Below are positions 3,386 through 39,325 of a DNA stretch of 39,650 nt, piece by piece. Every line of letters starts with the position of its first letter. Positions within the stretch are counted from its first letter, which is position 1. The stretch spans positions 1 to 39,650 of the forward strand of contig JYFJ02003652.1 in NCBI GenBank assembly GCA_000934665.2, read 5' to 3'. The DNA comes from Catajapyx aquilonaris (Eukaryota). Made by a program: the position numbers and the translations under genes. The notes beneath the pieces were generated by a model. The model was not told the DNA's origin, ran no database searches, and worked only from the letters and a program-made list of their open reading frames with translations.

Positions 3386-4304
3386 CAGGGCCGCATTAAG
3401 GTTTTTTGCGCCCCAAGCCCGAAGAAGAAATGCGCCCCCCCNTATTTTTCAATTTGAAATGCCAAATTATTTTACAATTTAATGTCATTAGGCCACTTGC
3501 AGGTGAGTAATTATTATACAATTATTCGATTTCGAAAACGTCAGGAAATAGACTTCAAATTGCACAATTTTAAATTACAATTAACTTCAAAGCCTCATTT
3601 CAGATGAGAGCTGGGAGCATTTTGTTCAGATAGATTCTTCTTATGAAGAATCAACAGGAATTATTTTAACTTGTTTTACTTGCACTTAAATTGTCTTAAA
3701 TGTTAACACCAAGTAACGCTTACAAGTTCAGCATTTAGTGGAAAACCTTTTTTCTAGACTTCTTTTCTGCAAACTGAATTAATAACTTGTCAAGGCACAG
3801 TGTTTCAAGTTTATCACTTTCGATTGAAAGCAAAGACAGTGCAGACAATCGTTCCTGCTTCATTGTAGCACGGAGTTCTGATTTGATTAGTTTAAGTTTT
3901 GAGCAAGTCCTTTCACCCTTGCAATTGGTTGCAAAATTGCACAAATACATTCTTAGAATAATGTCAACGTGGGGATCCTTAATGGGCACCTTTTCGGCAG
4001 GGCGCATTTTCGGCAGGGGCACATTTTCAGAAGGGGCGCCTTATTTTGGGCAGGGCGCATTTTCTCGGCGCCCCCTCCGTGATTTTAGCCCCCCCCCCCN
4101 CCCCCCCCCCCCCCATGCCGTTACGCCACTGATAGAATTAGCAAAGCAGTGCATAATAATTTTAATAATAATAATTTTAAATAAATTAATAAATTAATGA
4201 ATAATTTTTTCATTATATCTAGTGCAGAGCCCAAAATTTTGCGCCCCTAAAACTCGCGCGCCCCAAGCCCGGGCTTGTTGGGCTTGTTGGTTAATGCAGC
4301 ACTG
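3386..4304 (-). mobile_element. Deleted hAT element carrying the transposase C-terminal dimerisation-domain fragment
   Basis: 8-bp TSD GTTATGAG (3378-3385 and 4305-4312); TIRs CAGGGCCGCATTAA / CAGTGCTGCATTAA. ORF 3735..4022 contains ERTCSKLKLIKSELRATMKQERLSALSLLSIE, a hAT (ERxFSxLKxIK) motif. Confidence 0.9.
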
Positions 4305-5067: not shown

Positions 5068-5157
5068 CTTCATCTAGTAGATTCAGAAAATACATAGAAA
5101 CCTGCAAGTCTTTTGTGGGGTTAAACTGCACCCTTGCCAATAATTATGTCCTCCAGT

Positions 5158-5452
5158 ACCGAAGCAGGTTGGCATAGTGGATAAGGCGCCCGACTGCTAA
5201 TCGGGAGGTCCTGGGTTCGAATCCCGGGGCCGGCAACTCCGACCGTGGTTTTCTGTGGTTTCCCACGGTCCTTCCAGGGAAATTCCGGAGTTGCTTCCAT
5301 AATTAATAGGCCACAGCCGCTTCCTTTCGTCCCTATCCTATCCCAAAAAGCGCAGTAAAATGAAAGCAAGGAGTTCCAGGCAAAACAAAAACTTCCCCCC
5401 TAAAGAGCCGACAGGCTGATAACGGGGTATGAATTATTATGAATTATTATTT
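5158..5452 (+). mobile_element. tRNA-derived SINE, family 1
   Basis: A box TGGCATAGTGG, B box GGTTCGAATCC, (ATT)-rich tail, and 15-bp TSD ATTATGTCCTCCAGT. The empty site is in G3 at about 30810-30825. Confidence 0.95.
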
Positions 5453-5915
5453 ATTATGTCCTCCAGTCCCCCTGATCAAATTATGTGAGGACCTGTGACA
5501 CTGCCTTACTTATGGTGCTGAAAACGAAACAGTGCTCTGATGTCATCAAGGTTTCTTTGAAAATACCCTCACAGAACTATATGAGTAAACAGCAGCAACA
5601 AAAAGCAACAATGCAAGAAACAATGGCATCAGATCTTAGTTTGGTTTTGCGCAGCCTACATAGTGTTCCAGTTCTACAATGGAATTATTTCATGGCTGGG
5701 AACAACAGCATAAGTTTGTGTCTTTTGGAAATGGGATACAAACTTGGCAATGCTGTCTATCAACATATTGCTTGCAAATTAGTGGTAAAATATAATAGAT
5801 CCCTAATATTTTAATATGGAATAAAGAATCCAAGTTTTGCAAAGTAGCCAAAAAATGTCGTCCTCAGGGTTGAAAATAGAAAACATTTCCTTTTTTTCAC
5901 CATAACATCACTCAC

Positions 5916-8900
5916 AGATGCTCGTTTGTTCCTGGTCACCCTTCCGCTTGGGCCAGGATGTGGTTCATTTGATGGGTCAGCTGCAGCCGATGGCATGGAT
6001 TCATCCCCATCAGGTTCAGTGCCACTGGAAACTTCTGAAGCAGCACCCTAGGGTAATAAATAATAGTGTGGCCTTAGATATCGTCATACAAAATCACTTC
6101 CGAAGTCCCAGTTACACCACTTTCCACTTCCAGAATCCCCCATCCGTGAACTAAGTCCAAATTCAGAGTTCTATTCACTTATCAATTGTAATGGTTTTAC
6201 ATTCAAACTGTACTTCTGAGATACGTAAAAAAATATACAGGGAGTAAATGAATTCAAATGACAAACTTCTAGGGGTGATAGAGGGGACCAAGACACACAT
6301 TGTTCACATAGGAACCCGTGTCCAGAAACGCCATCTAGAGGGGGTTCATAGACAAGGAACAGTGCACACAGACGCTTCAGGTTGGTGGCGTTAGCGAGCG
6401 GACCGTTTAGTTGCTAGGTGCCGGGCGGATTGTACACAACTTTGCATTTCGCCATAACCTGGCAACAACAGAGTTGTTGTTTATTATCTGCGTGCTACCC
6501 AAAGAGTTCTGCTATATTATATATACACCTAGAGGAGGTACTCGGCCTGAAATGTGAGGCAGGCAACAATGCATGCAACAATATGACCTTCAACAAGATG
6601 GCGGACGCCTGACCTTATTGAACTAATTGTCGCCCAGTTGTCATTATTGGTTGTTGTCCCAGTTGCTAGACAACTGTTAGAACAACAATATGACCTTCAA
6701 CAAGATGGCGGCTGCCTCAGCCTGTCTAATGGAAAAGTATAGGGAGTACCTCCTCTAGGTATTATATTATATAATAGCAGAACTCTTTGGTGCTACCTAG
6801 CATGCTGACTTTACTTGCTAGGTGGCTCTGTTGTTGCCAGGTTATGGTGAATTGCAAAGCTGTGTAAATCCACCCGCCACCTAGCAACTAAACGGTCCGC
6901 TCATTAGCGCCTCCCGCGTGACACGTCTGAGCGCACCCGTTCCTTGTCTATGAACCCCCTCTAGACGGTGTTTCTGGACACGGGTTCCTATGTCAAATAT
7001 GTTTGTCTTGGCCCCCTCTATTACCCCTACAAGTTTGTTGGCTGAATTCATTTACACCCTGTATAAGTAAACATTGTTCATTTTGCTTCAACATTTGTGT
7101 CAGTACCAAATTGATACGGAAAAATGTCTGGTATTCTTCCCATACCACAGTGTTTTGCCTGCTCCCAAGTTCTGCATCTTGATGCGAGTCTCCCTCATCA
7201 AGTGTGGAGCATTGGGGATCTTCTTCAGGTTGGTCATGGCCACATGTTGAGGCTGCTTCTCCACCTGCAAAAATGCAATGACATTAAACTGTACTTCTGC
7301 AAAAAAAAATCTCTATATTTTCAAAGATTGCCCTTCCCCCCTTCCTTCTAAATGGGGAGGAGGCAGTTAGAAGGAGATGGGCCAATCACTGCCTTTGATA
7401 TTAAATAACCCGGGCCAACAATAAACGTCTAAGGTGCATTCCTGGGCATCAAGGGAATGCTTTTGGCAGCAGTGCTATTGGGTCCATGCAGTCTAGTTGC
7501 TGAATAAAGACTACATTATACAGTACCATATTCTATGTCAAAGATAAGTCCTACGACTTTACTTTAAAGATAATTAAGATAAACCCTCTGTGCATTCTGA
7601 CAATCATACCTTCATTTGCCAAACTGCCAACTACTGCTTCTGATTTGGACTGAGTCTCATTCAAGGGTACAGCAATTTCACTGATGTTTATGGATGTCCT
7701 GTCTTCTTCGGATTCCCAGTCTTGATTCTACCATTATAGAGGAAAGGACATTACTATTTAACTAACAGTACGTATATTAGCTTTAAGCAAAAACTCTGCA
7801 ATGAAAAATATCGTCGGCCGGGGATCAAAACCTCGTAACTCCATTTATGCGCGAAAATGGACTTACGAGTGAGGTCGTAAGTCCCTTTGCACATGTGACC
7901 ATATTATGGTTAGGTCACGTAAGTGTGTCTAATGTCCAACACTCGACTTATTGTAACCGAGTATCAATAGTGTTCACGCCCAATAATTCCTCTGAGTCAC
8001 GATTGAGCCATTGCATCATTCCCAATTATCACCTGCGTAAAACGTTGCATAACATAACCTTGTACTGCACGCGCCAATATAGGCCTCTCGCTCATCAAGG
8101 ATAGAGTGTCCTCTCCAGTGCAAGCTGACGCAGCATTCCTGTGACAATATGTCAGCCCCGTGCTCGGTACATGCAGCTGCAGAACTGTGGATGCATTCCA
8201 CCACTTCCAGCCTTGAATCACGCCGAGATCAGCACTATTCCTTCCGGGTAGTTTCCTTATAAATAGGGGCGTTTTCCCCCAAGAAAGTGGAGAGAACCCA
8301 GGAGAGAACTGGGGAGAAGGAGAGAGGCACCACACAGAGAGCACCGGAGACGACCGAAGAGCGGACACCATGGTAGGAATTGTTAGCATGAACAGAAAAC
8401 ATTATTTTACTAAATGTTTTTTGTCCCTCCTGTGAAATTTGGCCTTGAGGAGTTACGAGGTTTTGATCCGCCGCCGACGATATGTCATCTGTAGCAACAA
8501 TGGTCAACAGGTTTCACTGCACAATGAAATTATTGTGATGTAAACAATTTTCATTGGTAATCAACAATTATTTCACTTCCACTACAACCAATGAAAAATT
8601 GACTTTACACAGCTGGCATTTGGAAATTTCTGCTCTCATCATGACTGTAAACCAGATTGACATTGACTTCACCACCTCTTTAGAGTTAATTGTGTCATTA
8701 TAATGGTCTTTTACTATTAAACCGAGTAATACCAGTTAGTTTACACCATGGATTTGTACTATGTGTATGTTCCAAAAATATGACTCTGGTGCAACAGAAC
8801 GTCTCATACCCTATTCATATTTGAGCTGGCCATTTCATTTGGCCTAGCCATACCCTATAAATGAGCAATTACAGTCATCCTCACCCAGCAGTTGATCTCT

Positions 8901-9539
8901 TGTGGTCCTTCATTCTCCACCATGACCTCCTCCTCCACCATGCACTGGTCCAGCTCAGTTTCCATGCTGCCCACAGGCACGGAATCTCCATTTTCAACTT
9001 GCGCATCAACTGAACAAGTGAGATCTTCAGAAAGTGAGTTTCCTGGATCATCTGCAGCTGAAGAGGTAAAGCGCATTCCAGTCAAACCCTGACTCTCAGT
9101 CAGCACTCTCGTTCACATGTCACCCACAGAGGGCTTTTACTTGGGAGATGTCATTGGGCATGTCGGTATGAGAAGGTCAGGTTTACGTTCAGAAAGCAAT
9201 ATGAGGGTCCAACTTTTTTACTACTTGCGAGGGGTTACCCTATGGCATACCTGTTCATTATGGAATAATTACATTTGATTTTAATTTGAGAGGGTTGGCA
9301 ACCCTGATTGGAATGCCACCGCCACTTGTCTTACAACAGCGCCTCATGCCGAAGTCCCCCTTCCACTCACCCTCTTCCTCCTCTCCACTTATTCTGCACC
9401 CGCCACACCAGGCCCACTCCTTCAGGGCCCCCACACCATCCTCCAGTGAGTCCAGTCGAGGAAGGATCAGCTCCAGGATAAGACGCTTCACGGACAATGT
9501 TGTCATCTCCATCACCAACTCACTGTCGACTGGGGCCAT
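5916..9539 (-). CDS. ZnF-family paralog G1, 5' part (5 coding exons; acidic/NLS and finger exons not in window)
   Basis: Exons 9539-9371 (MAPVDSEL...WAWCGGC...EEEE), 9057-8885, 7727-7610, 7264-7146 and 6047-5916. All have AG/GT boundaries, compatible phases (1,0,1,0,0) and no stops, and all are homologous to G2/G3 exons. Intron homology to G2/G4 resumes at 4759-4820 and 1817-1992, so the next exon should lie left of position 1. Confidence 0.8.
6238..7061. mobile_element. Tc1/mariner-type foldback MITE with long TIRs
   Basis: TA-CAGGG(A/T)GTAAATGAATTCA at both ends; imperfect inverted arms of about 240 bp. Confidence 0.85.
6500..6789. mobile_element. P- or hAT-type MITE nested in 6238-7061
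   Basis: TIR CAAAGAGTTCTGCTAT with 8-bp TSD GTGCTACC; internal direct repeat caacaatatgaccttcaacaagatggcgg twice. Confidence 0.75.
7809..8482. mobile_element. Unclassified TIR element in a G1 intron
   Basis: TIRs of about 34 bp (TATCGTCGGC...GGATCAAAACCTCGTAACTCC). The paralogous empty site in G3 reads gaaaaa|tgtcatc (about 33661-33673). Confidence 0.8.
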
Positions 9540-11795: not shown

Positions 11796-12506
11796 CTAAT
11801 GGACTAATTTCATGTGGCGGTGCATGGAGCGTTTGTTGTTGAACTGTTTCCCACAAGTGCTGCATTCAAAAGGCTTCTCACCCGAGTGAATTAACATGTG
11901 CTGGTGTAAGGTTCCAGACCGACCAAATCTTTTCCCACAAGTGCTACATTCAAAAGACTTCTCACCAGAGTGAATTAACATGTGAGAGTGTAAGTGTGCT
12001 GACTGAACAAATCTATTGCCACAAATGGTGCAGTGAAATGGTTTCAATCCCTTGTGAATCCGAACATGAAGGTGGTACTGAGAACTTGAAGGAAAACATT
12101 TTTCGCACCATTCGCACTGGAAGGGCCTTTCTCCTGTGTGACTCCTCCTGTGAATAACCACGTAAGACTTCCTAACAAATTTCTTGTCACACATGTCACA
12201 TGAGTAAGGCCTCACACCAAGATGGACATCCTTGCAATGCCTTTGTAACCCCCACTTTGAAGTGTACCTCTTATCACAATCACTGCATGGGTAAGGCCCA
12301 CCATCAGATCTGAGTCTTTCATGGCCAGTCAACTTCTGCTTCACTTGAGTAGTGTGTACTGATCCTGGCTTCTTCTTGTTTTCTGTCTTTTCCCCTGGTT
12401 TCTTTTTCAAGCCCACACACAATTCATCTGCAGTTGTACCATCCATATGGAAGTCTCCAGTGGTTCTCGAAGTATTTGTTTCAGTTGATTGCATATTGCA
12501 GTTACC
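11796..12506 (-). CDS. G2 terminal exon: six C2H2 zinc fingers
   Basis: ORF 11796..12494 has six C-x2-C...H-x3/4-H units with GEKP/GERP-type linkers. The acceptor tttaaaag|GGT at 12506 is conserved in G3 and G4. Confidence 0.95.
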   Translation of the reverse strand, partial: GNCNMQSTETNTSRTTGDFHMDGTTADELCVGLKKKPGEKTENKKKPGSVHTTQVKQKLTGHERLRSDGGPYPCSDCDKRYTSKWGLQRHCKDVHLGVRPYSCDMCDKKFVRKSYVVIHRRSHTGERPFQCEWCEKCFPSSSQYHLHVRIHKGLKPFHCTICGNRFVQSAHLHSHMLIHSGEKSFECSTCGKRFGRSGTLHQHMLIHSGEKPFECSTCGKQFNNKRSMHRHMKLVH

Positions 12507-15500
12507 CTTTTAAAAAACTCCACATTACTACTGAACAAAATTAAACACACACTAGGAAAACCCCTCGCTACACTCGCATTTTCCTAGAAAACCACTCACT
12601 TCGTTTGCTCTTTTCTAGGCCTGCGGCCTGGGGTATCTACTCGCGTACCACATCACCAGGGGAGGGTGTAACGTTAGAACTGCAGCAGTCTTTGAACGGC
12701 ACGATTAGTGAGATATGTCTGTGCTGTGTCTGTCATTCCGAAGAGTGAGACTCTGTCAAAGGACTCTGTAAACAACTTCACAGCAGTGCCAACTGGGCAA
12801 CAGCGCAGAGAAGGAATGGACAGTTTCCCCAGCAACCCAACAGAGGAGTTGTTTACATATCTTTGTACATGAGTAGAAGGCAGGCGAATGGGGAGGTGGC
12901 GGCAACAATATGCGGCGGACCAATCAGAGGGCTTGGTCAAACACCGCAAGGATTTTAATATGATAGATTCTAAACTGTATTAGTGTTGTTCATTGATCCA
13001 ATCATGGCAAGCAAAATCAAAATGGAAATCTGGACCTTCACACCACCACAGCTCAAAGGCAATCTTGAATCAAGTAGGATCAAGTAGGATTTTTTGCCAG
13101 ATTTTTAGACCCAAACTTGTTTTTTGAGTGGAATGTCCCTTTAAGACAGAAAATACTCCCACCGAAACGGTCTCAGGATAATTATGTTCAGGTCTGATCT
13201 GCCAAAATCAGCAGCTCATCTTTGAACAGTGGGACACTCCAATATTATTACAAAACAGGAGCCACATGATGGACAGTTGTAGAATTCATACATTTGCACT
13301 TATTGGGCTCTCTTTCAGTTAAATTTTTCAACTTTCAACTGTGAAGCCATTGCCTTTTAACTATTGGACAGCATTTCCCAAGGTATTTTAGTGAGCGAGT
13401 TCACAATCAGTGTTGACTATGAACACAGCTGATGTTTCATGGGTTGATCTGGTGATCTGGTTTTGCCACATTTTCACCCCTGCAATGCTCATCTTCCTCT
13501 CCCTTCCATTCTCGCCTCAGATATGTGAATCACAAACTGCATTAGGAGTCAGAAGTAACTCACCCTTCCCCTAAAGACAAATAACTGCAACCTTAAATGA
13601 CCCCTAATTAATTTCGCATAGCTTACCTTTTCTCTTGGTTTCTTCCTCTTCCTCTTCAAGAGAGCACATGTCTTGTCATCTGAGCGACTAGGAGGAATGT
13701 ACTCATCCCCAGAGTCACTCAGATCAGATAAGGACTGCTCACTGTAGTCTTTGTCCTCATAAACAGGAACCTGCAACACGAAAAATCAGTGATAATGAGT
13801 ATCTAAATCCACTCAATCCTTTGCTACTGGTGATGGACTAGGGATGTGCATATTAAGTACTTAATGACCCACATAAATTTATATAAATAAAATCCCACAT
13901 AATTACTTATCGTGGCAATAATAATTAGGCTTCGGTGCAGTTTAGCCCCACAAAAATCTTGCATATTTCTGTATATTTTTTGAATAAGCTTCATGAGCGG
14001 AGTCTAAAATGATACTCTTCCTAGTGTGCGGAAATGCTTGGTTCAAAAGTAATTGAATTTTGAAGTTGCAAGTAATAACAATGAATGAAATGAAAGTAAA
14101 CAAGTGTTCCTTTGTTGAAAACTGTCCACTCCCATTGCAGCGGGAGGTGATTCTCCGTGGAAACGTGTGAGTTGCCCCGGCAATGTGCTGTGAGGGATGC
14201 TGAGTGATGTAAATAAATGGTTGTTTGTCTGGAATTGGGCAAGCCAGGGGTTAACCACTCGACTGTAAAGTGTACACTGGAGTACCAAGGAGAACCCAGG
14301 AGTACCAAAGAGTATAAGGTACCTATAATGAGTACCTGGGAGTACCATCGCACTTCAGGTGTACACCAGAGTACTAAGCCTTCCTAGAAATAAGGAGGGT
14401 GGATGGTGTCTCATCGGCCATTGATGCTCGAGGTCTCTTCCACGCCAACAATACTGTTGCAGTAAAATGCATATTAAGCTTTTCGTAAATTACTCAAGGC
14501 ATGCCCCACGCTGATTGTGTTGGTGTTATATGTGTTATATGTTGAAAAATAAATGCAAGTTTAGCTATGCGGCCAAAAAATGTCCTCTTCACTGTTGAAA
14601 ATGGAAACAATTTTTTTTTTTTTTTTCACTCACAGACGCTCGTTTGTTCCTGGTCACCCTTCTGCTTGGGCCAGGAGATGACTCACTGGATGGATCAGAT
14701 GGAGTAGGCGGCATGGGTTCATCCGCATCAGGTTCACATCCACTGGAGACTTCTGAAGCAGCACCCTAGGGCAGTAAAATAATAGTGTGGCCTAAGATAT
14801 CATGATAAAACATTACTTCCAAAGGCCCAATTACACTACCCTCCACCCCCAGAATCCCCCACCCAGGAAGTCAGTCCAACATCTGTCAATTCTGGTTGCT
14901 TTATATTCAAATTGTACTCATGAGATGCAAAAAATACACATATGGCAATCCATCAAAGCAGGTTGTAATGATTAAGGGCAAAGTCGGGAACTAATTCTCT
15001 TTACCACATAAAAAATCAGTCCCAATTTGTTTTGACTCGCCCTGGTATATTGCAATGAATGCGGAAATATTATGGGTTAATCATTGTGGTGAATATATGG
15101 CAATGCTGCCTCACACTAGATAAGTACAATCAATTGGTGCACATGGAAATGTGTCTGAATGAGAGGAAATTCTACCATGACCTGACTCAGCACCAGTAAT
15201 CTATATTCTTTAGCAAGAGCGTTACACTACAAGAAGTACAAAAACCAAGTTACGGGATATCTAATTCCACTCAATCATTCATTACTATGCATATAAGTGG
15301 CGTGTTAATAAGGCTCCATAGTAGTATAAATACCATCACATATTATCTGCTAACACCTATTTATTTGAGGATCATGATTCAAAGCTAAAGTTGACCACTG
15401 GAATATCCATGTGAACGGACAGCCATCCCAGAGCTCCTCTTATCACACTCTTGATAGTTTCCTTTCCAAATAATAATAAAATTTACCCTACCTCAGTATT

Positions 15501-17507: not shown

Positions 17508-20500
17508 GGCAATGGTTACATTCCCTTTGGGGTATATTGCACAGACCTTTATTGACGGTTTCTATGTACAGCATTGTACATCAGAACTTTTGTATGAAGG
17601 GCCCCGGCCCAAGGACAGGGTGACTGGGAGGGGATGTGCAAGGTGCAGTGCAATGTCGTTGCTTTGGTCATTTTGTGAACTCCCCAGTGTGGTTAGTCTA
17701 GCAGAAATCCCACGCGAGGTGAAACCACAGACTATGCAACTCTGCACAAGGTGAAGGGGAGAAATATTGGGCTTGGGATCGAACCCGGGAACAGTACATC
17801 TGTGGGTACATATTTACAATTGTATGTACTGCTGCACCACTCTGCCTCCCCTACAATTATTTCAATACATATATCGTCGCTGTGGAGTCAAAACCGCGTA
17901 ACTCTCTTTTCGGCAGATTTCGGGTTTTTGATTCTGAAAATCGGGCATTTTGCGCTGCATCTGCCATCAAATCGGCGTAATGCTTTGCTCAATAGGAGCG
18001 AAGATATGGGCAGGTTTAAAGATTAAATCTCAATGCAAGTGTAATATTTGTATTCAGTTTTTTAGTGTTCAGCACAGTAACTGTGCTGAACACTAGGTTG
18101 TGCTAGAGGTTGTGCTGGTTTTAAAAATTTGGCTATTTACACCATCATCATCACTGTCATAGCCCTTAAATTCTTCGTCTCTCTATTTCATTTGACCCCC
18201 AGACCAAATGAATTAGACATTTCAACCTCACCCAACTGTCAATTCCTTGTCCTTCATCCTCCACCATCACCTCCTCTGTCTTGCACTGGTCCAATTCAAC
18301 TTTTGTGCAGCCCACAGGCACGGAATGTCCAGTTTCAACATGAGCATTGCCTGAAGTGAGAGCTTCAGGAGGTATGTTGCCTGGAATGTCATCAGGAACT
18401 GAAAAGGGAAAGAGCATTCCAGTCTCTCTGACCCTCAGGAATCTCATTTACTTGGCAAGTACACATGTCCCAAACAGAATAGATATTGACATAATACTAT
18501 AATAACAGACTTTTCCGTCCAACTCATCATCATAAGTCGTAACTACCCCTGGTTTTTCTTCAATACGAGTTGTGAAAAGAACAGCATGGTGGCATAAGCA
18601 TAGTTTTAAAGGGACAGTACACCACAGCCATACAGTTCTACTGCCAGAGTTCAATCTCTGAGTGGAGCAGATAATACTGTATAGTCACATGGGAAGAGCT
18701 ATGAGGACTTCTCTCTGTGCACATTTTCTCTGATTATTCTCATTGCCTCCTACAAGCAAAATTCATCATCATGCTTAACGCTTCAAGGTAAGAACCCTCC
18801 AAGTTAGTCGTAAATAAGACTCTCACGTGACACAGAATCAAGATTCCAGCTCTTTCTGCAACAGCCGTAATCTGAGACGGTTGGAAGCCCTGTTTGTGGG
18901 CACCTCCCCTACAACCCAAAAATGCAAGTCCCCAATTCACCATGTCCTGATCCACACCCTTTGGACCCAACAAATGGCCTAGGGAATATCACAAAATGCG
19001 AAGTTAAAACCCTGAGTATAGGACCTTAACTGTAACACTTTGCCTGCTACATCCAATTCGGTGGCATCTTTAAATTGCAGGGTTACGCCCAAAATTTAAT
19101 CAAAATGATTAGGTAATGCACAGGAATGCATTCAAGCAGGGATATTTTAAACATTACGCTTGAAGATAACGCTCTCATCAGTAAGGAGGGTTAAGTGGCA
19201 AAATGACATCTCTACATGAAGTGACCCTCTGTACCACAGCAGTTCACCCTGGGCGTTTGTCAGTTATGATGTCAATGATGATAAAACCTGTGTGCGTGCC
19301 AACCATACCTGTTTTTGCCAAACTGCCAACTTTGACATCTGAATCCGCCTGAATCGCACACAAGAGGGCAGCAGTTTCACTCATGTTTCTGGCTGTTCTC
19401 TCTTCTTCAGATTCACAGTCTTGATTCTACCATTACAAGGGGAAACACTTTGCTAGTTAACTAACAATATTTTATAATTGCTTTAAACAAACAAAAACTC
19501 TGTAATGAAAAATTTGCCTATCTGTAGTCGCACTGGTCAACATATTAGGTACAGTCAATAAGTTCCCGTCCCTGCAGGCCGGCAGGTGACACGGAGACAG
19601 GTGCTGCTGTGGTTGGCTGTGAGGTACATTAGCAGTCACCAATCTGGCCAAGAGTGAACTCGGTGTGCTGTGTAATAGCTGCGGTACACAGTCGAAAAAT
19701 GTCGTTCACCATATCACGCGCTTCCAAGGCGGATGAACGGGCAGTAACTCAGTTCCTGTGAGCAGAGGGAGCGGGACCGAAGGAGATACATACACGCATG
19801 AGGGCTGTGTATGGAGACACTTTCCAGGCGTACTCGACAGTGAAGGACTGGGTACGCCATTTCCGCAGTGGTCGACAAGGCGCTTGTCCATCAACAGGAT
19901 TGCTGAACAGGCTTGCATCGTTGGAGGCGGTAACAGGTCGGCCTGACCGTGCCATGTCTGACGTGCCTTGTCGACCACTGCGGAAATGGCGTACCCAGTC
20001 CTTCACTGTCGAGTACGCCACGAAAGTGTCTCCATACACAGCCCTCGTGCATGTATGAATCTCCTACGGTCCCGCTCCCTCTCCACACAGGAACTGAATT
20101 ACTGCCTGTTCGTCCGCCTTGGACGCGCGTGATATAGTGAACGACATTTTTCGAATGTGTACCGCAGCTATTACGCAGCACACCGAGTTCACTCTTGGCC
20201 AGATTGGTGACTGCTAATGTACTATATCGCTCAAAAAGATAGAGACGATTGGCATTTGATTCAAGTGCAAGTTGCACTTGAGTCAAATGCAAAATCGTCT
20301 CTATCTTTTTGGGCGATATAGTACCTCACAGCCAACCACAGCAGCACCTGTCTCCGTGTCACCTGCTGGCCTCCAGCCAGCTGGGACGGGAACTTATTGA
20401 CTACACTAATATTTCATTGCACAATGAAATTGGTATGTAAGGAATTTTCATTGGTCATCAACAATGATTTCACTTCCATTGCTAATAATGAAAAATTGAT

Positions 20501-21442
20501 TTAAGCAGCTGGCATTTGGAAATTTCTGCTCTCATCATGACTGTATTGACATTGACACCAGCACCTCTAGAGATAACTGAGTCATTATAATGGTCTTTTA
20601 CAATTAAACCGAATAATACCAGTCAGTTTACACCATGGATTTGTACTACGGTATGTTTATGTTCCAAAAATATGACTCGGTTGCAACATAACATCTCATA
20701 CCCCGTAAATATTTGAGCTCGCAATTTCATTTGACCTAGCCATACCCTATAAATGAGCAATTTCAGTCATCCTCACCCAGCAGTTGATCTCTTGTGGTCC
20801 TTCATTCTCCACCATGACCTCCTCCTGCTCCGTCTTGCACTGGTCCAGCTCAATTTGGATGCTGCCCACAGGCACGGAATCTCCATTTTCAACTTGAGCA
20901 TCAACTGAACAAGTGAGATCTTCAGAAGGTGAGTTGCCTGGATCATCTGCAGCTGAAGAGGTAAAGCGCATTCCAGTCAAACCCTGACTCTCATTCACAT
21001 GTCACCCACAGAGGCATTTAGCCTACATGGGAAATGGTCATTGGGCATGTCGGTATGAGGAGGACAGGTGTTCAGAATGCATTATGAGGGTCCAACTCTT
21101 TTACTATAGGACGTGGGATATTATTATTACGTTTGATCATGGTTCGATTTCAGCTTGAGAGGGTTGGCAGCCCTGATTGGAATATATGCCACCACTTATT
21201 GTCACACAACCACATCACATCATGTCGAAGTCCCCCTTGAACTCACCCCCTTCCTCCTCTTCACTCGTCACTCTGCAGCCCCCACACCAGGCCCACTCCT
21301 TCAGGGCGCCCACACCATCCTCCAGTGCCTCCAGTCTGGACAGGATCAGGTCCAGGTTGTCCAGTCGAGGCAACATAAGCTCCAAGAGACGTTTCGTGGC
21401 CAAGATTGTCTCCATCATCAACTCCAGGTCGACTGGGGCCAT
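11796..21442 (-). CDS. ZnF-family paralog G2, complete 9-exon gene, about 627 aa, 6 C2H2 fingers
   Basis: Exons 21442-21247, 20952-20777, 19426-19309, 18398-18232, 17185-17068, 15613-15492, 14765-14634, 13770-13627 and 12506-11796. Lengths sum to 1884 nt (627 codons plus TAG). Junctions are canonical and phase-compatible, with splice positions conserved in paralogs. Confidence 0.85.
12552..12967 (-). mobile_element. Non-autonomous Helitron related to 1993-4758
   Basis: Minus strand 5' TCTATCATATTAAAATCC...GCCCTCTGATTGGTCCGC and 3' ...GCGAGGGGTTTTCCTAG. Flanked by A and T; absent from the same intron in G3 and G4. Confidence 0.85.
14244..14376. mobile_element. Single terminus of the element family seen at 22804-26613
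   Basis: ccaggggttaaccactcgactgtaaagtgtacactggagtacc matches the reverse complement of 26525-26613; GAGTACC subterminal repeats. Confidence 0.55.
17362..17852 (-). mobile_element. tRNA-derived SINE, family 2, with (ATT)n/(GTT)n tail
   Basis: Reverse-complement similarity to 24370-24786; B box GGTTCGATCC; microsatellite tail at 17362-17506. Confidence 0.8.
19548..20406. mobile_element. Foldback mariner derivative: two inverted copies of the 5' end including transposase HTH coding sequence
   Basis: Inverted arms of about 330 bp with TA flanks. Both arms encode VYGDTFxAYSTVKDWVRHFRSGR, and the spacer continues with RSGRP, typical of the mariner N-terminus. Absent from the equivalent G1 and G3 introns. 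Confidence 0.9.
20222..20321. mobile_element. 100-bp palindromic MITE nested in the right arm of the foldback mariner
   Basis: TA TSD; the left arm supplies the empty site (gctaatgTAcctcac). Confidence 0.85.
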
Positions 21443-21536: not shown

Positions 21537-21569
21537 TCAAAGAGAGAAAATCCTCGCAACGGACGCCAT
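21537..21569 (-). promoter_or_regulatory. Candidate uORF MASVARIFSL* upstream of G2 start
   Basis: Same position and length as in G1 and G3. Confidence 0.5.
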
Positions 21570-21599
21570 GTTAAATTCAGGATGGGGGGAGAAAGTCGC

Positions 21600-21660
21600 G
21601 TAGCTGTTGGGGTCAAGGAAAGCAGCGACTGTGAAGAACTAATATGGAACGGATAGCGCT
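21600..21660 (-). promoter_or_regulatory. Conserved putative core promoter/TSS block (copies at about 9715-9775 and 35415-35475)
   Basis: Minus-strand GCTATCCGTTCC(G/A)TATTAGTTCTT is shared by three paralogs just upstream of the uORF. TTAGTT resembles the arthropod Inr (TCAKTY). TSS not verified. Confidence 0.4.
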
Positions 21661-21787: not shown

Positions 21788-22075
21788 TAATAATAATTCA
21801 TACCCTGTTATCAGCCATCGGCTCTTTAGGGGGGAAGTTTGTTTTGCCTGGAACTCTCTTTGCTTTTTCATTTTACAGTGCTCTTTGGGTTAGCATAGGG
21901 ACGGAAGGAAGCGGCTGTGGCCTATTAATTACGGAAGCAACTCCGGAATTTTCCTGGAAGGACCGTGGGAAACCATAGAAAACCACGGTCAGCGAGTTGC
22001 CGGCCCCGGCATTTGATCCCAGGACCTCCCGATTAGCAGTCGGACACCATATCCCCTCCTCCAAACTGCTTCGGT
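21788..22075 (-). mobile_element. tRNA-derived SINE, family 1
   Basis: Reverse complement of 5158-5452; TSD ATGCTCTGTG (21778-21787 and 22076-22085). The empty site is at about 35537. Confidence 0.9.
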
Positions 22076-24369: not shown

Positions 24370-24730
24370 CAGGGGAGGCGGAGTGGTGCTGCGGTAATGT
24401 ATGCGCCCACGGATGTTAAGGTCCCAGGTTCGATCCCAGCCCGGGGACACCCCCTTCATCTCGTGCAGAGTTCAGGGTCACCTCTGGCTTCGTCTCGGGT
24501 GGTATTTCCACAGACTAAACCACCCGGGGGAGTTCACTAAAAATGGCCACAGCGTCAGATGCACTGCACCTTGCACATCCCCTCCTGTCATCCTGCCCGT
24601 GGGCCCGGGCTGTAATTAAATAGGCACCACGTACTGAACAACTCAAAATACAATAAAGGTCCATGCGATATACCCGGGAAGGAGTGAAAGCATTACCCAC
24701 AAAATATTCTTCTTCTTCTTCTTCTTCTTC

Positions 24731-24786
<56 letters not shown>
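24370..24786 (+). mobile_element. tRNA-derived SINE, family 2, with (CTT)n(ATT)n tail
   Basis: A-box-like GGCGGAGTGG and B box GGTTCGATCC; related to 17362-17852. Confidence 0.85.
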
Positions 24787-26000
24787 GTGTTAGAACTAGT
24801 GGGGGTTTCTCTGACTGGTTTAACATTAGTGTTGGGGTTAAGCAGGGTTGTGTCATGTCTCCCTGGTTATTTAACTTGTACTTAGATGCATGTGTAAGGG
24901 AAGCTATGGTTGAAGGTGTAGGAGTGCAGTTTGGGGATGAGTTAGTTAGTCACTTGCTGTATGCAGATGATTCTGCCCTTCTGGCGGAGAGTGAGGCTGA
25001 TTTACAGTTGATCCTATGCAAGTTAGATAATGTTTGTGAAAAGAGGGGTATGAGGATTAATGTAGATAAGACTAAGGTATTGGTATTTGAGAGGGGACAG
25101 CAGGTTTCTCCTTGTACGTTGCAGGTACGAGGAAAACTGGTTGAGCAGGTCAGCCAGTTTGTATACCTGGGTAGTGTCCTTGAGAGTAATGGTAGAATAA
25201 TTGATGGGGAGATTGACAGGAGAGTTAGTTCTGGGTTGAAAGTAATAGGTGCCACAAGTAGGTTTTCTAGAAATAAGGACTTATCTTCTGCCTGTAGGTT
25301 GTCTGTCTATTCTCACGTTATTGTTCCTTCACTTATGTGTGGTAGTGAAGCGTGGGATTGGTCAGATAGGCTTAAGAGTAGGGTGTTGGCTACAGAGATG
25401 CGTTATCTCCGGGCTGTTTGTGGGGTTACCAAGTTCGATAGGATTAGGAATGAGGAGATTTTGGAGAGGTGTAATGTTAAGGAGACTGTTAAAGATAAGG
25501 TGTGTAGGTCTACTCTAAGGTGGTTTGGCCATGTGGAGAGGATGAAGGAGGAGGAGATTGTGAAGAAGGTTTATTTGGGTGTCAGAGTAGTTGGTAAGAG
25601 GGGCAAGGGTAGGCCTAGGAAGACATGGTTGGACCAGGAGGGTCAGTGTCTTAAGGGTGCTGCTAGTGTTAAGCCGAGACGTTCTTGTGTCAATAGGACC
25701 ATGGACGTGGCTGAGGCTAGGGTTGTTTGTTTGGATAGGTGTAAATGGCGTAGGTTAATTAATGGGTAAATAGGTAAATACGTCTGAGGATAAGGTGATG
25801 TCTGAGGTGGGCAGGGGTGGGGGGTGGGACGGGTTGTTTTTAGGTTTATTCTCATGAGTTTTATTAGTTTATTGTTGGGTTAGCTTGCGTCTCCCTTCAT
25901 CGCTGACTACCCCTCACAGGGAAATGTCGTGATGTTGTTGTTGTTGTTATTATTATTATTCTTCTTCTTCTTATTATTATTCTTATTATTCTTATTATTA
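24787..26000 (+). mobile_element. 5'-truncated RTE-clade LINE (C-terminal reverse transcriptase ORF 24787-25769, 3' UTR, (GTT)n tail)
   Basis: GVKQGCVMSPWLFN, LLYADD, YLGS, LRWFGHVERM and GRPRKTW motifs typical of RTE/BovB ORFs. The frame is open throughout. Confidence 0.95.
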
Positions 26001-27640: not shown

Positions 27641-28297
27641 TCATTTTCTCTTCATGTGCAACTTTATGCCTTGCCTATGCACTAATTTCATATGGGTATG
27701 CATCTTACCTTTTCGGTTGAAATTTTTCCCACAAGTGCTACATTCAAAAGGCTTCTCACCTGAGTGAATTAACATGTGCTGGTGTAAGTGTGCTGACCGA
27801 CCAAATCTTTTCCCACAAGTGATGCATTCAAAATGCTTCTCACCAGAGTGAATTAACATGTGCCGGTGTAAGTGTCCTCTACGAACAAATCTTTTGCCAC
27901 AAATCGTGCAATGGAATGGTTTCAATCCTGTGTGACTCCTCCTGTGAAGAACCATGTGAAACTTACAAACAAATTTCTTGTCACACATATCACATGAGTA
28001 AGGCCTAACACCAAGATGGACATCCTTGCAATGCCTTTGTAACCCCCACTTTGAAGTGTACCTCTTATCACAATCACTGCATGGGTAAGGTCCACCATCA
28101 GATCTGAGTCTTTCATGGCCAGTCAACTTCTGCTTTACTTGAGTGTGGACTGATCCTGGCTTCTTCTTGTTTGCTGTCTTTTCCCTTGGTTTCTTTTTCA
28201 AGCCCACACACAAATTATCTGAAGTTGCATCATTCCTATGGAAGTCTCCAGTGGTTCTCGAAGTATTTGTTTCAGCTGATTGCATATTGCAGTTACT
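27641..28297 (-). CDS. G3 terminal exon: five C2H2 fingers (frame open; third finger of G2/G4 deleted in frame)
   Basis: ORF 27641..28339. HRRSHTG joins directly to LKPFHC, so the 28-aa finger present in G2 and G4 is missing. Confidence 0.85.
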   Translation of the reverse strand, partial: SNCNMQSAETNTSRTTGDFHRNDATSDNLCVGLKKKPREKTANKKKPGSVHTQVKQKLTGHERLRSDGGPYPCSDCDKRYTSKWGLQRHCKDVHLGVRPYSCDMCDKKFVCKFHMVLHRRSHTGLKPFHCTICGKRFVRRGHLHRHMLIHSGEKHFECITCGKRFGRSAHLHQHMLIHSGEKPFECSTCGKNFNRKGKMHTHMKLVHRQGIKLHMKRK

Positions 28298-28437
28298 CTT
28301 TAAAAAAAATTCAACATTACTACTGCACGAATTAAACACACCATCAAAAAGGTTTTAGTGTTGTTCAATGATCCAATCTTGAACAGCGGTACACTCTCAA
28401 TTCCAAGATAGGAGTCACATGATGGACAGGCAATAAA

Positions 28438-28988: not shown

Positions 28989-30095
28989 AAAGCACTTGGG
29001 CTCTCAATCAGTTAAATTTTTCAACTTTCAACTGTGAAGCCATTGGCTTTTAACTATTGGTCAGCATTTGCGAATGGATTTTAGTACATAGTGAGCTAGT
29101 TCACAATCAATAGTGTTCACTATGAACACAGCTGATGACGTTTTATGGGTTTATCTGGCGGTTATCTGGTTTTGCCACATTTTCACATATATGTAATGCT
29201 CATCTTCCTCTCCCTCCCACTCTCGCCTCATAAATATGTGAATCACGAACTGCCTTAGGAGTCAGAAATAACATACCCTTCCCCTAAAGACAAATTGCAA
29301 CCTCAAATGGCCCCTAATTAATTTGGCAACACCTACCTTCCCTCTTCGATTCTTCCTCTTCCGCTTCAATACAGCACAGGTCTTATCATCTGAGTGACTT
29401 GCAGGAATATACTCATCCCCCGAGTCACTAAGATCAGAAAAGGACTGCTCACTGTCCTCTTTGTCCTCATAAACAGGAGCCTGCAACATGTAGAATCAAT
29501 CATAGAGAGGATCTAAATCCACACAATCCTATGCTACCATACTGTCCATCCTGTAGCCCTGTCAGGCATTGTACGTCGCCCATGCATGATAATTTTAGTT
29601 AAAGAGGATCGCTAGCGGAGCTAGGCCCTTATTGGGAGTTTTGAATTCTCAATATTTACCGCACTGTCTGTCTTGTGGAGCCGCAGGCCAATGAACGTTT
29701 GCCACATCCACATCACGCAACACCCACATCTACTCCGCCACAAGGCGAACAGTAATGCTGGGAACACACAACCCCCAAATTACTTGTAAAATTGCCATGT
29801 ACTACATTGCATTCCCTCAAGAATGGGAGTAACTGTTTCAACAAAGGAACAGCTAGTTGTTTATTTTCATTTATTGATTGTTATTACTTGCAATTTCAAA
29901 ATTCAATTCCTCTTGAACCAAACATTTCCGAACACTAGGAATCAGGACCGGCGCAACACACTTAGCGCGCTAAGCATGGCACGGGCGCGCCGAAGAAAAA
30001 TGGAAAGCCACTGCGCCAGGCGTAGAGCACTGCATATTTACTTCTGAAAGTTAACCTGCAATGTTAATTTATGTCATGATGATTGAAAACACAGA

Positions 30096-30371
30096 ACCGA
30101 AGCAGGTTGGCATAGTGGATAAGGCGTCCGACTGCTAATCGGGAGGTCCTGGGTTCGAATCCCGGGGCCGACAACTCTGACCGTGGTTTTCTGTGGTTTC
30201 CCACGGTCCTTCCAGGGAATTTCCGGAGTTGCTTCCGTAATTAATAGGCCACAGCCGCTTCCTTCCGTCCCTATCCTATCCCAAAGAGCACTGTAAAATG
30301 AAAAAGCAAAGAGAGTTCCAGGCAAAACAAACTTCCCCCCTAAAGAGCCGATGGCTCATAACGGGATATGA

Positions 30372-30437
<66 letters not shown>
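30096..30437 (+). mobile_element. tRNA-derived SINE, family 1, long (ATT)n tail
   Basis: Close to 5158-5452; 14-bp TSD ATTGAAAACACAGA. Confidence 0.95.
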
Positions 30438-31301: not shown

Positions 31302-31594
31302 GCATAGGCCTATATCTCGTAAATTATTGGCAAAATAGAATAGATCACTAATATTTTAATATTTAAAAAAGAATGCAAGTTTCGGAAAGTAGCCAAAAAA
31401 TGTCGTCCTCACTGTTGAAAATGGAAAACATTTACTTTTTCTCAACATAACATTACTCACAGATGCTCTTTTGTTCCTGGGCAAGGAGATGGCTCACTTG
31501 ATGGGTCAGCTGCAGCAGATGGCATGGATTCATCCCCATCAGGTTCAGTGCCACTTTAGACTTCTGAAGCAGCACCCTAGGGCAGTACATAATA

Positions 31595-32229
31595 GCAACA
31601 AACTTTTGGTGGCAGCGTACGGATACGCGAAGGCACAACCAGTTCAAAGATCTGTCCCAATAGGTTGGCGCAGGGATGTCAATAAGCTGTTACCCCCAGG
31701 TATCTATACGTAAATGCTTAACTCCAACCCAAGTGAGGTGCTCACTTACTTGACAGATTTTTACGCCAAGCAAGAAGAGGAACTTTTGGCATACAATATT
31801 TCCTACGTCCCATACTCCGCAGCCAAATCTCTAACCTACCCGGAACTCTATTGGTCTTATAATCTCCCACTAAACCCACTGCGCACTTGGATTCGATTGC
31901 GTGGTTTACCAAAAGTTTTCTGGTTTCAAAACTACAAGTTTTCATTTGACGGCGAACCATGTGTGTGGTGTAATACGGCCTCCGAATTTGACCACTTTCA
32001 TCTTCTTTTTGACTGTCCTTTTTTTTGTACCCCTCGCTCTCTACACCTGGCAGACTTACCCCGTATGCCGCCTGACAAACTAGCTTTTGTGTTCAATAAC
32101 CCCTCAAAAAGACTGTTATTAGATATGCATTATTTTTTCTGTGAATGTCAAAAAAAGTGTGTATAATGACTGTATATTTGGTTGTGGTGTCCCCCTTAAA
32201 GGGTTAGCTCTAACCCTATAGTCGGGGTA

Positions 32230-34413: not shown

Positions 34414-35349
34414 TTAGTTTACAGCATGGATATGTACTATGTTTATGTTCCTAAATATGACTCGGTTGCACCATAACGTCTCATACCCCTTAGATATTTC
34501 ATATTTGAGCTCGCAAATTCATTTGACCTAGCCATTCCCTATGAACGAGTAACTTCAGTCATTCTCACCCAGCAGTTGATCTCTTGTGGTCCTTCATTCT
34601 CCGCTATGACCTCCTCCTCCTCCTCCACCTGGTCCAGCTCAGTTTCGATGCTGTCCACAGGCACAGATTCTCCATTTTCAACTTGAGCATCAACTGAACA
34701 AGTGAGATCTTCAGAAGGTGAGTTCCCTGGATCATCTGCAGCTGAAGAGGTAAAGCACATTCCAGTCAAACCCTGACTCTCAGTCAGCACTCTCGTTCAC
34801 ATGTCACCCACAGAGGGCTTTTACATGGGATATATGGGAATGGTTGGTCATGGAGCATGTCAGCATGGGAAGGTCAGGTATGTTCAGAGAGCAACATGAC
34901 GGTCCAACTTTTTCACTATGGCGAGAGGTATACCCTGTAGCTCGTTAGGGAATAATTACATGTGATTTTAATTTGAGAGGGTTGGCAGCCCTGATTGGAA
35001 AGCGACCACGTCTTGTCTTACAACAACAGCGCCTCATGTCGAAATCCCCCTTTTAAAAAATGCACGTCCCCCTTCAACTCACCCTCTTCCTCCTCTTCAC
35101 TTATTCTGCAGCCACCACACCAGGCCCTTGCACCAGGCCCACTCCTTCAGGGCGCCCACGCCATCCTCCAGTGCCTCCAGTCGAGGCAAGATCAGCTCCA
35201 GGAGACGCTTCACGGTCAAGACTGTCTCCATCATCAGCTCCAGGTCCACGGGGGCCATGATGGCTCCCACCCCTTTCGACTCCTCTCTGCAACCCTGTTC
35301 CACCCACAATCCGGACCAACAAACGTCCACGAAACGTCTCAAGCAGGAC

Positions 35350-36376: not shown

Positions 36377-37252
36377 CTAATGCATTAATTTCATATGGCG
36401 TTGCAAGTAAGCTTTCTGGTTGAAATTTTTCCCACAAGTGCTACATTGAAAAGGCTTCTCACCTGAGTGAATTAACATATGCCGGTGCATGTCTCGTGAG
36501 TGACGAAATCTTTTCCCACAAGTGCTACATTGAAAAGGCTTCTCACCTGAGTGAATTAACATGTGCTGGTGTAAGGTTCCTGACAATGAAAATCTTTTCC
36601 CACAAGTGCTACATTCAAAAGGCTTCTCACCAGAGTGAATTAACATGTGCTGGTGTAAGTGTCCTGACCGACCAAATCTCTTGCCACAAGTGCTACATTC
36701 AAAAGGCTTCTCACCTGAGTGAAGTAACATGTGCCGGCGTAAGGTTCCTGACCGACCAAATCTTTTCCCACAAGTGGTGCAGTGAAATGGTTTCAATCCT
36801 TTGTGAATCCGAACATGACGGTGGTAAACAGAACTTGAAGAAAAACATTTTTCACACCATTTGCACTTGAATGGCCTTTCTCCTGTGTGACTCCTCCTGT
36901 GAACAACCATGTGAGACTTCCCAGCAAATTTCTTGTCACACATGTCACATGAGTAAGGCCTCACACCAAGATGGACATCCTTGAAATGCCTTTGTAAAGC
37001 CCCCTTTGTAGTATACCGCTTATCACAATCACTGCATGGGTAAGGCCCACCATCAGATCTGGGTCTTTCATGACTAGTCAACTTCTGCTTCACTTGAGTG
37101 TGTACTGATCCTGACTTCTTCTTGTTAGCTGTCTTTTCCCTTGCTTTCTTTTTCAAGCCCACACACAAATCATCTGAAGATGCAGCATCCATATGGAAGT
37201 CTCCAGTGGTTCTCGATGTATTTGTTTCAGCTGATTGCACATTGCAGTTGCC
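36377..37252 (-). CDS. G4 terminal exon: eight C2H2 zinc fingers
   Basis: ORF 36377..37240 has eight C2H2 units. Fingers 4-8 form a near-identical 84-nt tandem repeat. Confidence 0.95.
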   Translation of the reverse strand, partial: GNCNVQSAETNTSRTTGDFHMDAASSDDLCVGLKKKAREKTANKKKSGSVHTQVKQKLTSHERPRSDGGPYPCSDCDKRYTTKGALQRHFKDVHLGVRPYSCDMCDKKFAGKSHMVVHRRSHTGERPFKCKWCEKCFSSSSVYHRHVRIHKGLKPFHCTTCGKRFGRSGTLRRHMLLHSGEKPFECSTCGKRFGRSGHLHQHMLIHSGEKPFECSTCGKRFSLSGTLHQHMLIHSGEKPFQCSTCGKRFRHSRDMHRHMLIHSGEKPFQCSTCGKNFNQKAYLQRHMKLMH

Positions 37253-39325
37253 CTTTGAAAAAATTCAACATTACTACTGCACAAATTAAACACACCATCA
37301 AAAAGTTGTTCAATGATCTAATCATGGCAAACAAAATCAATGGAAATCTGGACCTTCACACCACCGCAGCTCAAAGACAATCTTGAATCAAGTGGTAGCT
37401 TAATCCAGAAAATACTCCCACCAACATAAAATAGGTCTCACAAGGGAAAGTCACGGGGTGATAATGACGAATCTTGATGAAATTTAACATGCTAATACAG
37501 GACAATATATTATGACACCCAAAAATGAAATATTTCGTGCGGAACCCCATCGCTTTCATCGCTTTATCGCTTTCATCGCTGACCACCCCTCATAGGGAAA
37601 TGTCGTGATGTTGTTGTTGTTGTTGTTGGAACCCCATATTTGCAAACGTTATGACGTCTTAAAGTTCTAAAAATAATACATTTTCATACTCCATGGAATT
37701 ACATTAGCAACCACATATAATGACATTGAAGTGTGTAATCAGTTTCTAGACCTTTTCTCATAGGAAAAAGTCCTACAGAACGGTTCTGGCCGTCCATCCG
37801 TGGCCGTCTGTGGACAGGTATCAAGGCCTAAACCGTAAGAGATAGCGACAAACGTTTTTCATATTCGGATTGAGCGCGACCAAAATAGGTTTCCTGGTCA
37901 ACTTCTGGTGACCCGCCACTTCCGGTCTTCCGGGTTCACTCTATCCGCACAAGTCTACTTTATGGGCAGGTTATCGTTGGATTTCGATGTTAGTTTCCGT
38001 GTATTCCTGACCGTGTTTTTCGAGGATTTATTCCGGGTTGTACCTCATGTGAGCGTGATTTGATGAGACCTTTTCTCATTCTTTCAGGGAGCATGTGAAT
38101 CGATATATCGTAACCTAGGCAACATATCGATTCCAGTATCGGCTTGGGCGATAACATCTTGGCAGCCGATGACGCTCATTGCAAATATGTCCAACTTCAG
38201 GAATAAATTCCACAGCCCCTGTGCCAGAGAGTCAGGTAAAACCCGGAGTAAATCCCCGAAAAACACGGTCAGGAATACACGGAAACTATAACTTAGAAAT
38301 CCAACGATAACCCCTCCCGTAAAGTAGACTTGTGCGGATAGAGTGAACCCGGAATAGACCGGAAGTGGCGGGTCACCAGAAGTTGATCATGAAACCTATT
38401 TTGGTCACGCTCAATCCGAATATGAAAACCGTTTGTCGCTATCTCTTACGGTTTAGGCCTTGATACCTGTCCACAGACGGCCACGGACGGACGACCAGAA
38501 CCGTTCTGTATCACTTTTTTCCGACATCTGAGAAAAGGTCTAGAAACTGATTACACACTTCAATGTCATTATATGTGGTCGCTAATGGAATCCCATGGAG
38601 TATGGAAATGTATTATTTTAGGAAATTTAAGACGTCATAATTTTTGCAAATATGGGGTTCCGCACGAAATATTTCATTTTTGGGTATCATATATTGTCCT
38701 GTATTAGCATGTTAAATTTCATCAAGATCCGTCATTATCACCCCGTGACCTTCCCTTGTCAGCATAATTATGTTCAAGTCTGATCTGCCAAAATCAGCAG
38801 CTCATCTTTGAACAGCGGTACACCCAAAATTCCAAGAGAACAGCCACATGATGGACAGGTGTAGAAGACATACATTTCCACTTGTTGGGCTCTCTTTCAG
38901 TTAAATATTTCAACTTTCAACTGTGAAGCCATTGGCCTTTAACTATTGGACAGCATTTGCCTAGGTATTTTAGTCAGCTAGGTCACAATCAGTGTTGACT
39001 ATGAACACAGCTGATAATGTTTTATGGGTTGATCTGGTTATCCGGTTTTGCCACATTCCATCTTCTTCCCTCTCATCACCTCAGATATGTGAACCACGAA
39101 CTGCCTTAGGTGTCAGAAATAACTCACCCATCCCCTAAAGACAAATTGCAACCTTAAATGGCTCCTAATTAATTTGGCAAAACCCACCTTTCCTCTTCGA
39201 TTCTTCCTCTTCAAGACAGCACAGGCCTTGTCATCTGAGCGACTTGGAGGAATATACTCATCCCCAGAGTCACTCAAATCAGAAAAGGACTGATCATGGT
39301 CCTCCTTGTCCTCATAAACAGGAGT
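36377..39325 (-). CDS. ZnF-family paralog G4, 3' part (acidic/NLS exon plus terminal exon)
   Basis: Exons 39325-39188 (TPVYEDK...KRKNRRGK, 138 nt) and 37252-36377. Both junctions are phase 0 and canonical. Upstream exons lie beyond the window. Confidence 0.85.
37441..38758. mobile_element. 1.3-kb foldback element with about 500-bp TIRs and 3-bp TSD
   Basis: CAAGGGAA(A/G)GTCACGGGGTGATAATGACG inverted at both ends; TSD TCA. The empty site ggtcTCAggataatt is in G2 at about 13169-13183. Confidence 0.9.
37551..37627 (+). mobile_element. Extremely 5'-truncated RTE insertion
   Basis: Matches the 3' end of the LINE at about 25896-25947; (GTT)n tail; 10-bp TSD GGAACCCCAT. Confidence 0.85.

Follow-up and report, generated by a model that had tools for sequence, protein, structure and literature searches.

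What a large and rapidly evolving family of zinc-finger proteins does is decided by its N-terminal head, a constant module (KRAB, SCAN, ZAD, BTB, or FiNZ) by which such families are usually defined. The stretch of DNA analysed here, a 39,650-nt window from a Catajapyx aquilonaris contig, carries C2H2 zinc-finger genes in a head-to-tail array on the minus strand. The question considered here is whether the short first exon of these genes encodes a head of this sort and, if so, what the head might do.

The DNA of the window is of animal type: it contains introns and microsatellites as well as transposon debris. The debris includes a reverse-transcriptase fragment on the plus strand (24657-25769; RVT_1, 2e-15) and a mariner-type HTH_48 remnant on the minus strand (19749-20063). 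A repeat of approximately 300 bp is present three times (5154-5457, 21788-22075, and 30092-30394) and is covered by very many contigs in DNA runs.

The first exon and the gene model

Exon 1 was identified in three genes, termed G1, G2, and G3 (Table 1). In each of them it encodes a peptide that starts with MAPVD and continues with a predicted helix of approximately 40 residues, the invariant LEDGVGALKEWAWCGGC, and an acidic tail. Translation of 21240-21442, 9366-9539, and 35076-35258, all on the minus strand, reproduced the consensus that an initial annotation of this DNA had proposed. That annotation had also described an invariant block and an additional in-frame duplication of 10 residues in G2. 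Both were recovered: LEDGVGALKEWAWC was the same in all three copies, 35 positions were invariant across the three-copy alignment, and the duplication was present in the alignment of G2. In none of the open frames did an in-frame ATG precede the start codon, and the exon ends (21247, 9371, and 35083) each adjoined a GTGAGT donor downstream on the minus strand. A tblastn search within the window returned no head copies beyond these three.

Table 1 Coordinates of the head exon, its parts, and the downstream exons in the window.
Feature	Positions	Strand	Remarks
G2 exon 1, coding part	21247..21442	(-)	196 nt = 65 codons + 1 nt, phase 1 end; carries the 10-residue duplication
G2 start codon and donor	ATG 21442-21440; GTGAGT 21246-21241	(-)	read from the sequence
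G2 core LEDGVGALKEWAWCGGC	21275..21325	(-)	residues 40-56; protein-identical in 3/3 copies (alignment)
G2-only in-frame 30-nt duplication	21338..21367	(-)	RLDNLDLILS, 10 residues; L-x-L-x-L-x-R-L-x-x unit doubled; heptad register moved by 3
G1 exon 1, coding part	9371..9539	(-)	169 nt = 56 codons + 1 nt; intact
G3 exon 1	35083..35258	(-)	disrupted; 13-nt insertion after the WAWC codons
Exon 2	G2 20777..20952 (176 nt); G1 8885-9057; G3 34569-34741	(-)	from acceptor/donor and frames
Exon 3	G2 14634..14765; G1 5916-6047	(-)	Ser/Pro/acidic, ends RVTRNKRAS; G3 copy with stop and deletion
Exon 4	G2 13627..13770; G3 29337-29480; G4 39188-39325	(-)	acidic SDLSDSGDEYIP motif, then KRKRKK basic tract
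Last exon	G2 11796..12506	(-)	basic linker and six C2H2 fingers, ends at the stop codon
Finger-exon equivalents	G3 within 27641-28354; G4 within 36377-37264	(-)	ORFs, zinc-finger arrays

According to the alignment, the G1 head has two single-residue insertions in its first half. Apart from the G2 duplication, no copy shows insertions or deletions in the second half of the head, which extends from L-E-L-I-L-P-R-L to W-A-W. The insertion in exon 1 of G3 shifts the frame and leads to a stop codon ahead of the donor, and exon 3 of the same gene (31330-31600, minus strand) is interrupted by an in-frame TAA and has lost approximately 16 nt. From these three lesions, we concluded that G3 is a pseudogene. 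Exon 1 is intact in G1 and G2, which are the only two intact copies in the window. Furthermore, DNA contigs from a public sample showed a synonymous GGC>GGG change at 21278 (6 and 7 contigs in two runs of the one sample). Other head copies thus exist in that DNA, an observation from which we claim no copy number. Long open frames on the plus strand overlap exon 1 in all copies, but they are devoid of splice or start signals. Hence, a gene on the opposite strand was rejected, and these frames are probably the usual antisense by-product of a CTG/GAG-rich coding sequence.

The phase 1 end of exon 1 gives a predicted in-frame junction with an acidic exon 2 in all copies. Exon 2 opens approximately 300 nt downstream at a conserved acceptor (cctcttcag) and encodes approximately 58 residues, which are acidic and include no basic residue. 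The long intron of G2 contains a further, diverged copy of exon 2 (approximately 74% identity; 18157-18437, minus strand), and no copy of exon 1 is close to it. This copy may be left over from a lost gene or may serve as an alternative exon. The single Cys residues of exon 2 (in LTC, DQC, and INC) are kept in G1 and G2, and some of them are lost in the degenerate copies, where G3 reads DQV and the copy at 18166-18447 reads LTS and IDS.

The finger exon of G2 matched Pfam zf-C2H2 (4.6e-27) in six stretches, and that of G3 is still open despite the lesions upstream. A fourth gene, G4, at the right end of the window is represented by exon 4 and an eight-finger exon, its exon 1 being outside the window. 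Exon 4 and the finger exon of G1 were not found to the left of G1 exons 1-3, where the region has runs of N. Downstream of G1 exon 3, an open frame (3735-4040, minus strand) resembles the C-terminal dimerisation region of hAT transposases, although below threshold (E = 0.0017; 18.6 bits, cut-off 21.4).

Purifying selection on exon 1

G1, G2, and G3 share a 5' block of 1.1-1.3 kb, which comprises the upstream region, exon 1, intron 1, and exon 2. The pairwise mismatch was 0.19-0.22 in the upstream region, 0.16-0.23 in the intron, and 0.11-0.16 in exon 1. Between such young paralogs, whose non-coding flanks come close to exon 1 in similarity, identity alone is weak evidence for function. The three-way identity profile gave the same picture: the highest value in the block (0.95) was that of exon 2 with its flanks, the exon 1 core reached 0.8, and a 5' element (0.72-0.85 at 21540-21660) and an element in the intron (0.8) both equalled the core.

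Two elements of this block outside the exons were observed. Within the best-conserved part of the 5' flank, a 10-codon ATG...TGA element (21537..21569, minus strand) is located approximately 95 nt upstream of the start codon and kept in all three copies; it is a candidate uORF or promoter element. The intron 1 element, found at 21156-21195 and at the equivalent positions of G1 and G3, is approximately 40 nt long, contains a CCAAT-like word, and has a three-way identity of 0.8.

The pattern of substitution was more informative than identity. The dN/dS values of exon 1 were 0.23 (G1-G2), 0.25 (G1-G3), and 0.19 (G2-G3), with dS of 0.35-0.59. Comparison of G1 with G2 assigned 15.2 of the 31 changes in exon 1 to synonymous sites, as against 23% expected (binomial p = 0.0016). 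The 17-codon core has four variable sites with at least five changes, all of them synonymous and at third positions of Gly codons (p ~6e-4). The core shows no replacement change at all, and over the whole of exon 1 such changes are depleted approximately 4-5-fold relative to synonymous ones. A dN/dS near 1 had been named in the initial annotation as an outcome that would speak against a functional module; the values obtained, 0.19-0.25, lie far from it. From these ratios and the synonymous-only core, we concluded that exon 1 codes for a constrained peptide under purifying selection.

Exon 2 behaved differently: its dS was 0.06-0.11 as compared with 0.35-0.59 in exon 1, and its dN/dS, which is based on very few changes, was 0.85-1.23 and thus near 1. 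Its conservation at the DNA level could be the result of local gene conversion or of a constraint on the nucleotide sequence.

Database searches and predicted structure of the head

The initial annotation had regarded the head as possibly novel, and the searches for relatives were blank throughout. Neither of the two exon 1 peptides reached a Pfam gathering cut-off, the sole row being MYRF_ICA (E = 0.15; 11.8 bits against 24.1), and the Pfam profiles of KRAB, SCAN, BTB, and DUF3669 had no match among the two peptides. None of 177,635 PDB sequences matched the head profile at E<=10. A profile search of 1,835,955,588 protein cluster representatives yielded a single match at E<=0.001. This was an acidic repeat protein of 2558 residues; its six stretches all cover profile positions 9-32 only, and it was judged to be spurious, reflecting composition. 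Word-indexed protein searches gave 20 candidates for exon 1, none of which scored, as well as 6 candidates for the linker of the finger exon and 8 for exon 4, with no match in either case. Among JGI metagenome contigs, 76 pattern matches were obtained and none was confirmed, and the ESM Atlas returned nothing usable (best 0.80 against the 0.9 level). Foldseek comparison of the G2 model with the PDB returned 66 rows at E<=10 and none at E<=0.001; all were generic helical hairpins, including designed heterodimers, ROP, and the CENP-B dimerisation domain. The three core peptide strings did not occur in a full-text literature search.

The head is thus uncatalogued, which does not imply that it is unique. 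The search of the protein libraries did not recover the protein of the window itself, and a profile of 54 positions is too short to reach distant relatives in a library of 1.84 billion. As the linker and exon 4 were also without matches, the lineage is probably poorly represented in the protein libraries. With nothing from the N-terminal half of the protein matched, the absence of hits is hardly informative on whether relatives exist where sampling is poor.

Several known modules were considered as candidates for the head and rejected. ZAD binds zinc through four Cys residues, which form two CxxC pairs in the same chain. Exon 1 has one CxxC, exon 2 has only isolated Cys residues, and no zf-AD (PF07776) row appeared at E<=1 for the exon 1 and exon 2 peptides; ZAD was therefore excluded, in agreement with the initial annotation. 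A resemblance of PVDLE to the CtBP-binding PxDLS motif, which had also been suggested, did not survive the comparison of copies, as the sequence is PVDSE in the intact G1. The W-C-G-x-C-[KR] of the head resembles the active-site motif of thioredoxin and PDI. A thioredoxin fold was nevertheless rejected: there was no thioredoxin row at E<=1 and no PDB match at E<=10, and the predicted model contains helix only and no strand.

The structure of the head was predicted with AlphaFold2. With the three-sequence alignment, residues 6-44 were modelled as a single helix that stops at W44; the mean pLDDT was 78.6, and the blocks within residues 1-30 reached 83-93. CGGC and the acidic tail were drawn as coil (pLDDT 50-66). 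When G2 was used alone, two helices (residues 6-22 and 30-52) were obtained, broken at the conserved Pro into a hairpin (pLDDT 81.1). Both models thus predict the head to be helical, as had been expected. AlphaFold2 run on one or three sequences readily draws a helix for any amphipathic peptide, and the models mainly restate helix propensity.

The coiled coil proposed in the initial annotation was only partly borne out by the heptad pattern. In the G3-type sequence free of indels, all 11 heptad a/d positions are hydrophobic (L6, M9, V13, V16, L20, I23, L27, L30, V34, L37, and A41), a score reached in 45 of 20000 shuffles. The scores of the two intact copies were not significant: 9 of 11 positions are hydrophobic in G1 (reached in 1489 of 20000 shuffles) and 11 of 14 in G2 when a single register is applied (3030 of 20000). 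The in-frame duplication in G2 preserves the hydrophobic spacing.

The R-hxxhE trimerisation motif, which is defined as Arg(g)-h(a)-x-x-h(d)-Glu(e) and also occurs in some dimers, is described in an earlier report (PMC3653964). In the head, R-L-(D/E)-(S/A)-L-E occupies exactly g-a-b-c-d-e of the best register, as RLDSLE in G1 and RLEALE in G2 and G3, and starts at residue 28 (G1), 36 (G2), or 26 (G3). Composition-preserving shuffles of the three peptides contained it in 905, 1204, and 812 of 20000 cases, that is, in 4-6%, and so the motif carries little weight alone. Its presence and register were accordingly as claimed, but a trimer does not follow from a motif that is this frequent by chance and not specific to trimers. 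Moreover, the predicted helix contains a conserved Pro at position f and a G-x-G, both of which are atypical for coiled coils; a helix-kink-helix or a hairpin may thus be accommodated.

Proposed role and comparison with known heads

Here, we tentatively propose that exon 1 is the coding first exon of a tandemly duplicated, lineage-restricted C2H2 family and supplies a self-association head of approximately 55-65 residues, a proposal whose chances we regard as close to balanced. In this model, for which we infer oligomerisation, its stoichiometry, and any metal binding, an amphipathic heptad helix would extend from approximately residue 6 to W-A-W and be followed by a C-G-G-C knuckle and a Glu run; the very acidic exon 2, a basic nuclear-localisation-like tract, and the finger array would come after the head. 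Helices of different chains would come together in a short parallel coiled coil, with no particular number of strands assumed, and members of the family would then bind DNA as homo- or hetero-oligomers, in the manner of the SCAN, ZAD, BTB, and DUF3669 heads in other zinc-finger families. Such a parallel assembly would bring the CxxC at the helix end, within the invariant W-A-W-C-G-G-C, beside that of the partner chain, and the juxtaposed pairs might clamp the oligomer via a shared zinc ion or a disulfide. That the head is a new type of zinc-finger-associated domain in this full sense, a parallel coiled coil whose end is locked by inter-chain CxxC zinc or disulfide, we consider improbable. If it were so, hetero-oligomers under metal or redox control could be assembled from dozens of paralogous finger arrays, and the head would do in this lineage what SCAN and ZAD do elsewhere, on a different principle.

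Self-association is weakened by the register broken through the G1 insertions, by the Pro and Gly residues in the helix, and by an exon 2 more conserved than exon 1. It also counts against it that the evidence comes from three copies, one of them a pseudogene, with flanks almost as conserved as exon 1. On this evidence, the head is a plausible and constrained domain of putative function, represented by a few young copies.

Effector domains typically combine acidic stretches and bulky hydrophobic residues. The amphipathic helix with its W-rich end and the acidic exon 2 might accordingly dock a shared co-repressor or co-activator. The first approximately 113 residues of G1 contain 28 Asp/Glu and 5 Lys/Arg, exon 2 adds no basic residue, and the layout, a constant head exon on tandem and fast-changing finger genes, is that of KRAB and FiNZ. 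A hydrophobic periodicity over 5.5 heptads is, however, more regular than a docking helix needs, Pfam showed no similarity to KRAB, no partner is known, and the PxDLS-like motif is lost in G1. An effector head hence appears rather unlikely to us, although it and self-association are not mutually exclusive.

The remaining explanations concern the CxxC and the conservation itself. The CxxC might not be an inter-chain clamp but might form an intramolecular metal site with Cys residues of exon 2, or a redox-sensitive pair. C-G-G-C-R is strictly kept with only synonymous changes within it, and exon 2 offers three single Cys residues conserved in G1 and G2; these are, however, 20-25 residues apart, unpaired, and in part lost in the degenerate copies. 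For a redox pair of the thioredoxin kind, there was no Pfam row at E<=1, and in the models the motif has a helix before it and coil after it, unlike the thioredoxin beta-alpha unit. Taken together, we give either of these roles little credence. Finally, the head could have no specific function and owe its conservation to recent tandem duplication, possibly with gene conversion. The mismatch in the flanks (0.16-0.23) is not far above that in exon 1 (0.11-0.16), the 5' element, the intron element, and exon 2 match or exceed exon 1 in conservation, and one of the three copies is a pseudogene. Absence of function is nonetheless hard to reconcile with the 4-5-fold depletion of replacement changes and their absence from the 17-codon core; in addition, dS in exon 1 (0.35-0.59) is not low, and therefore recent conversion does not account for the identical core. 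We rate this explanation as very improbable and retain the self-association head as our proposal.

How the head relates to known systems can be seen at several levels. With SCAN, ZAD, BTB, and DUF3669, it shares the form of a short N-terminal module that is encoded by an exon apart from the fingers and sits on a tandemly expanded family. It differs from them in having no Pfam match and in being predicted as a single helix or helical hairpin rather than a globular domain. The DUF3669 head of some KRAB zinc-finger proteins was shown to mediate homo- and hetero-oligomers (PMC6923878), and self-association has also been shown for ZAD (PMC12649048).

With KRAB and FiNZ, the head has in common that it is a lineage-restricted, acidic, and constant N-terminal exon on rapidly duplicating finger arrays. 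KRAB of tetrapods recruits TRIM28, and the heads of both kinds recruit silencing machinery, as has been proposed in the case of FiNZ. To our knowledge, KRAB and FiNZ heads are without a heptad pattern and CxxC. Compared by description only, FiNZ is also similar in being short and without similarity to known domains: a report on cyprinid fish characterises it as a Glu-rich N-terminal sequence of 28 residues with no similarity to known domains (PMC10547256).

The R-hxxhE trimers of coronin-1, ccbeta, and GCN4p-M3 resemble the head in that the motif is in register, whereas the head has one motif per chain and a Pro and two Gly residues in the helix. In Rad50, an antiparallel coiled-coil hairpin carries the CxxC at its apex, flanked by helix on either side. 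In the head, the motif marks the end of the helix, after which come an acidic coil and the exon boundary, and no sequence relation to the zinc hook was found. A hook of the Rad50 type, with an apex CxxC between antiparallel arms, was thus rejected, as the predicted helix ends at W44 and is followed by coil from CGGC onward. The Rad50 hook is nevertheless the known precedent for a shared zinc: two CxxC motifs from two chains, carried on coiled coils, bind one ion and dimerise the protein (PMC5093744, PMC6969161).

A constant, lineage-restricted N-terminal head on an amplified zinc-finger family is a design that is already well known. The present head is not related in sequence to the catalogued ones, and it has a combination of heptad helix and terminal CxxC that we did not find described. 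If it were a metal-clamped oligomeriser, it would represent a compact new protein-assembly module. As an unrelated head in another animal lineage, it would add one more independent invention of the constant-head design to those of KRAB, SCAN, ZAD, BTB, and FiNZ.
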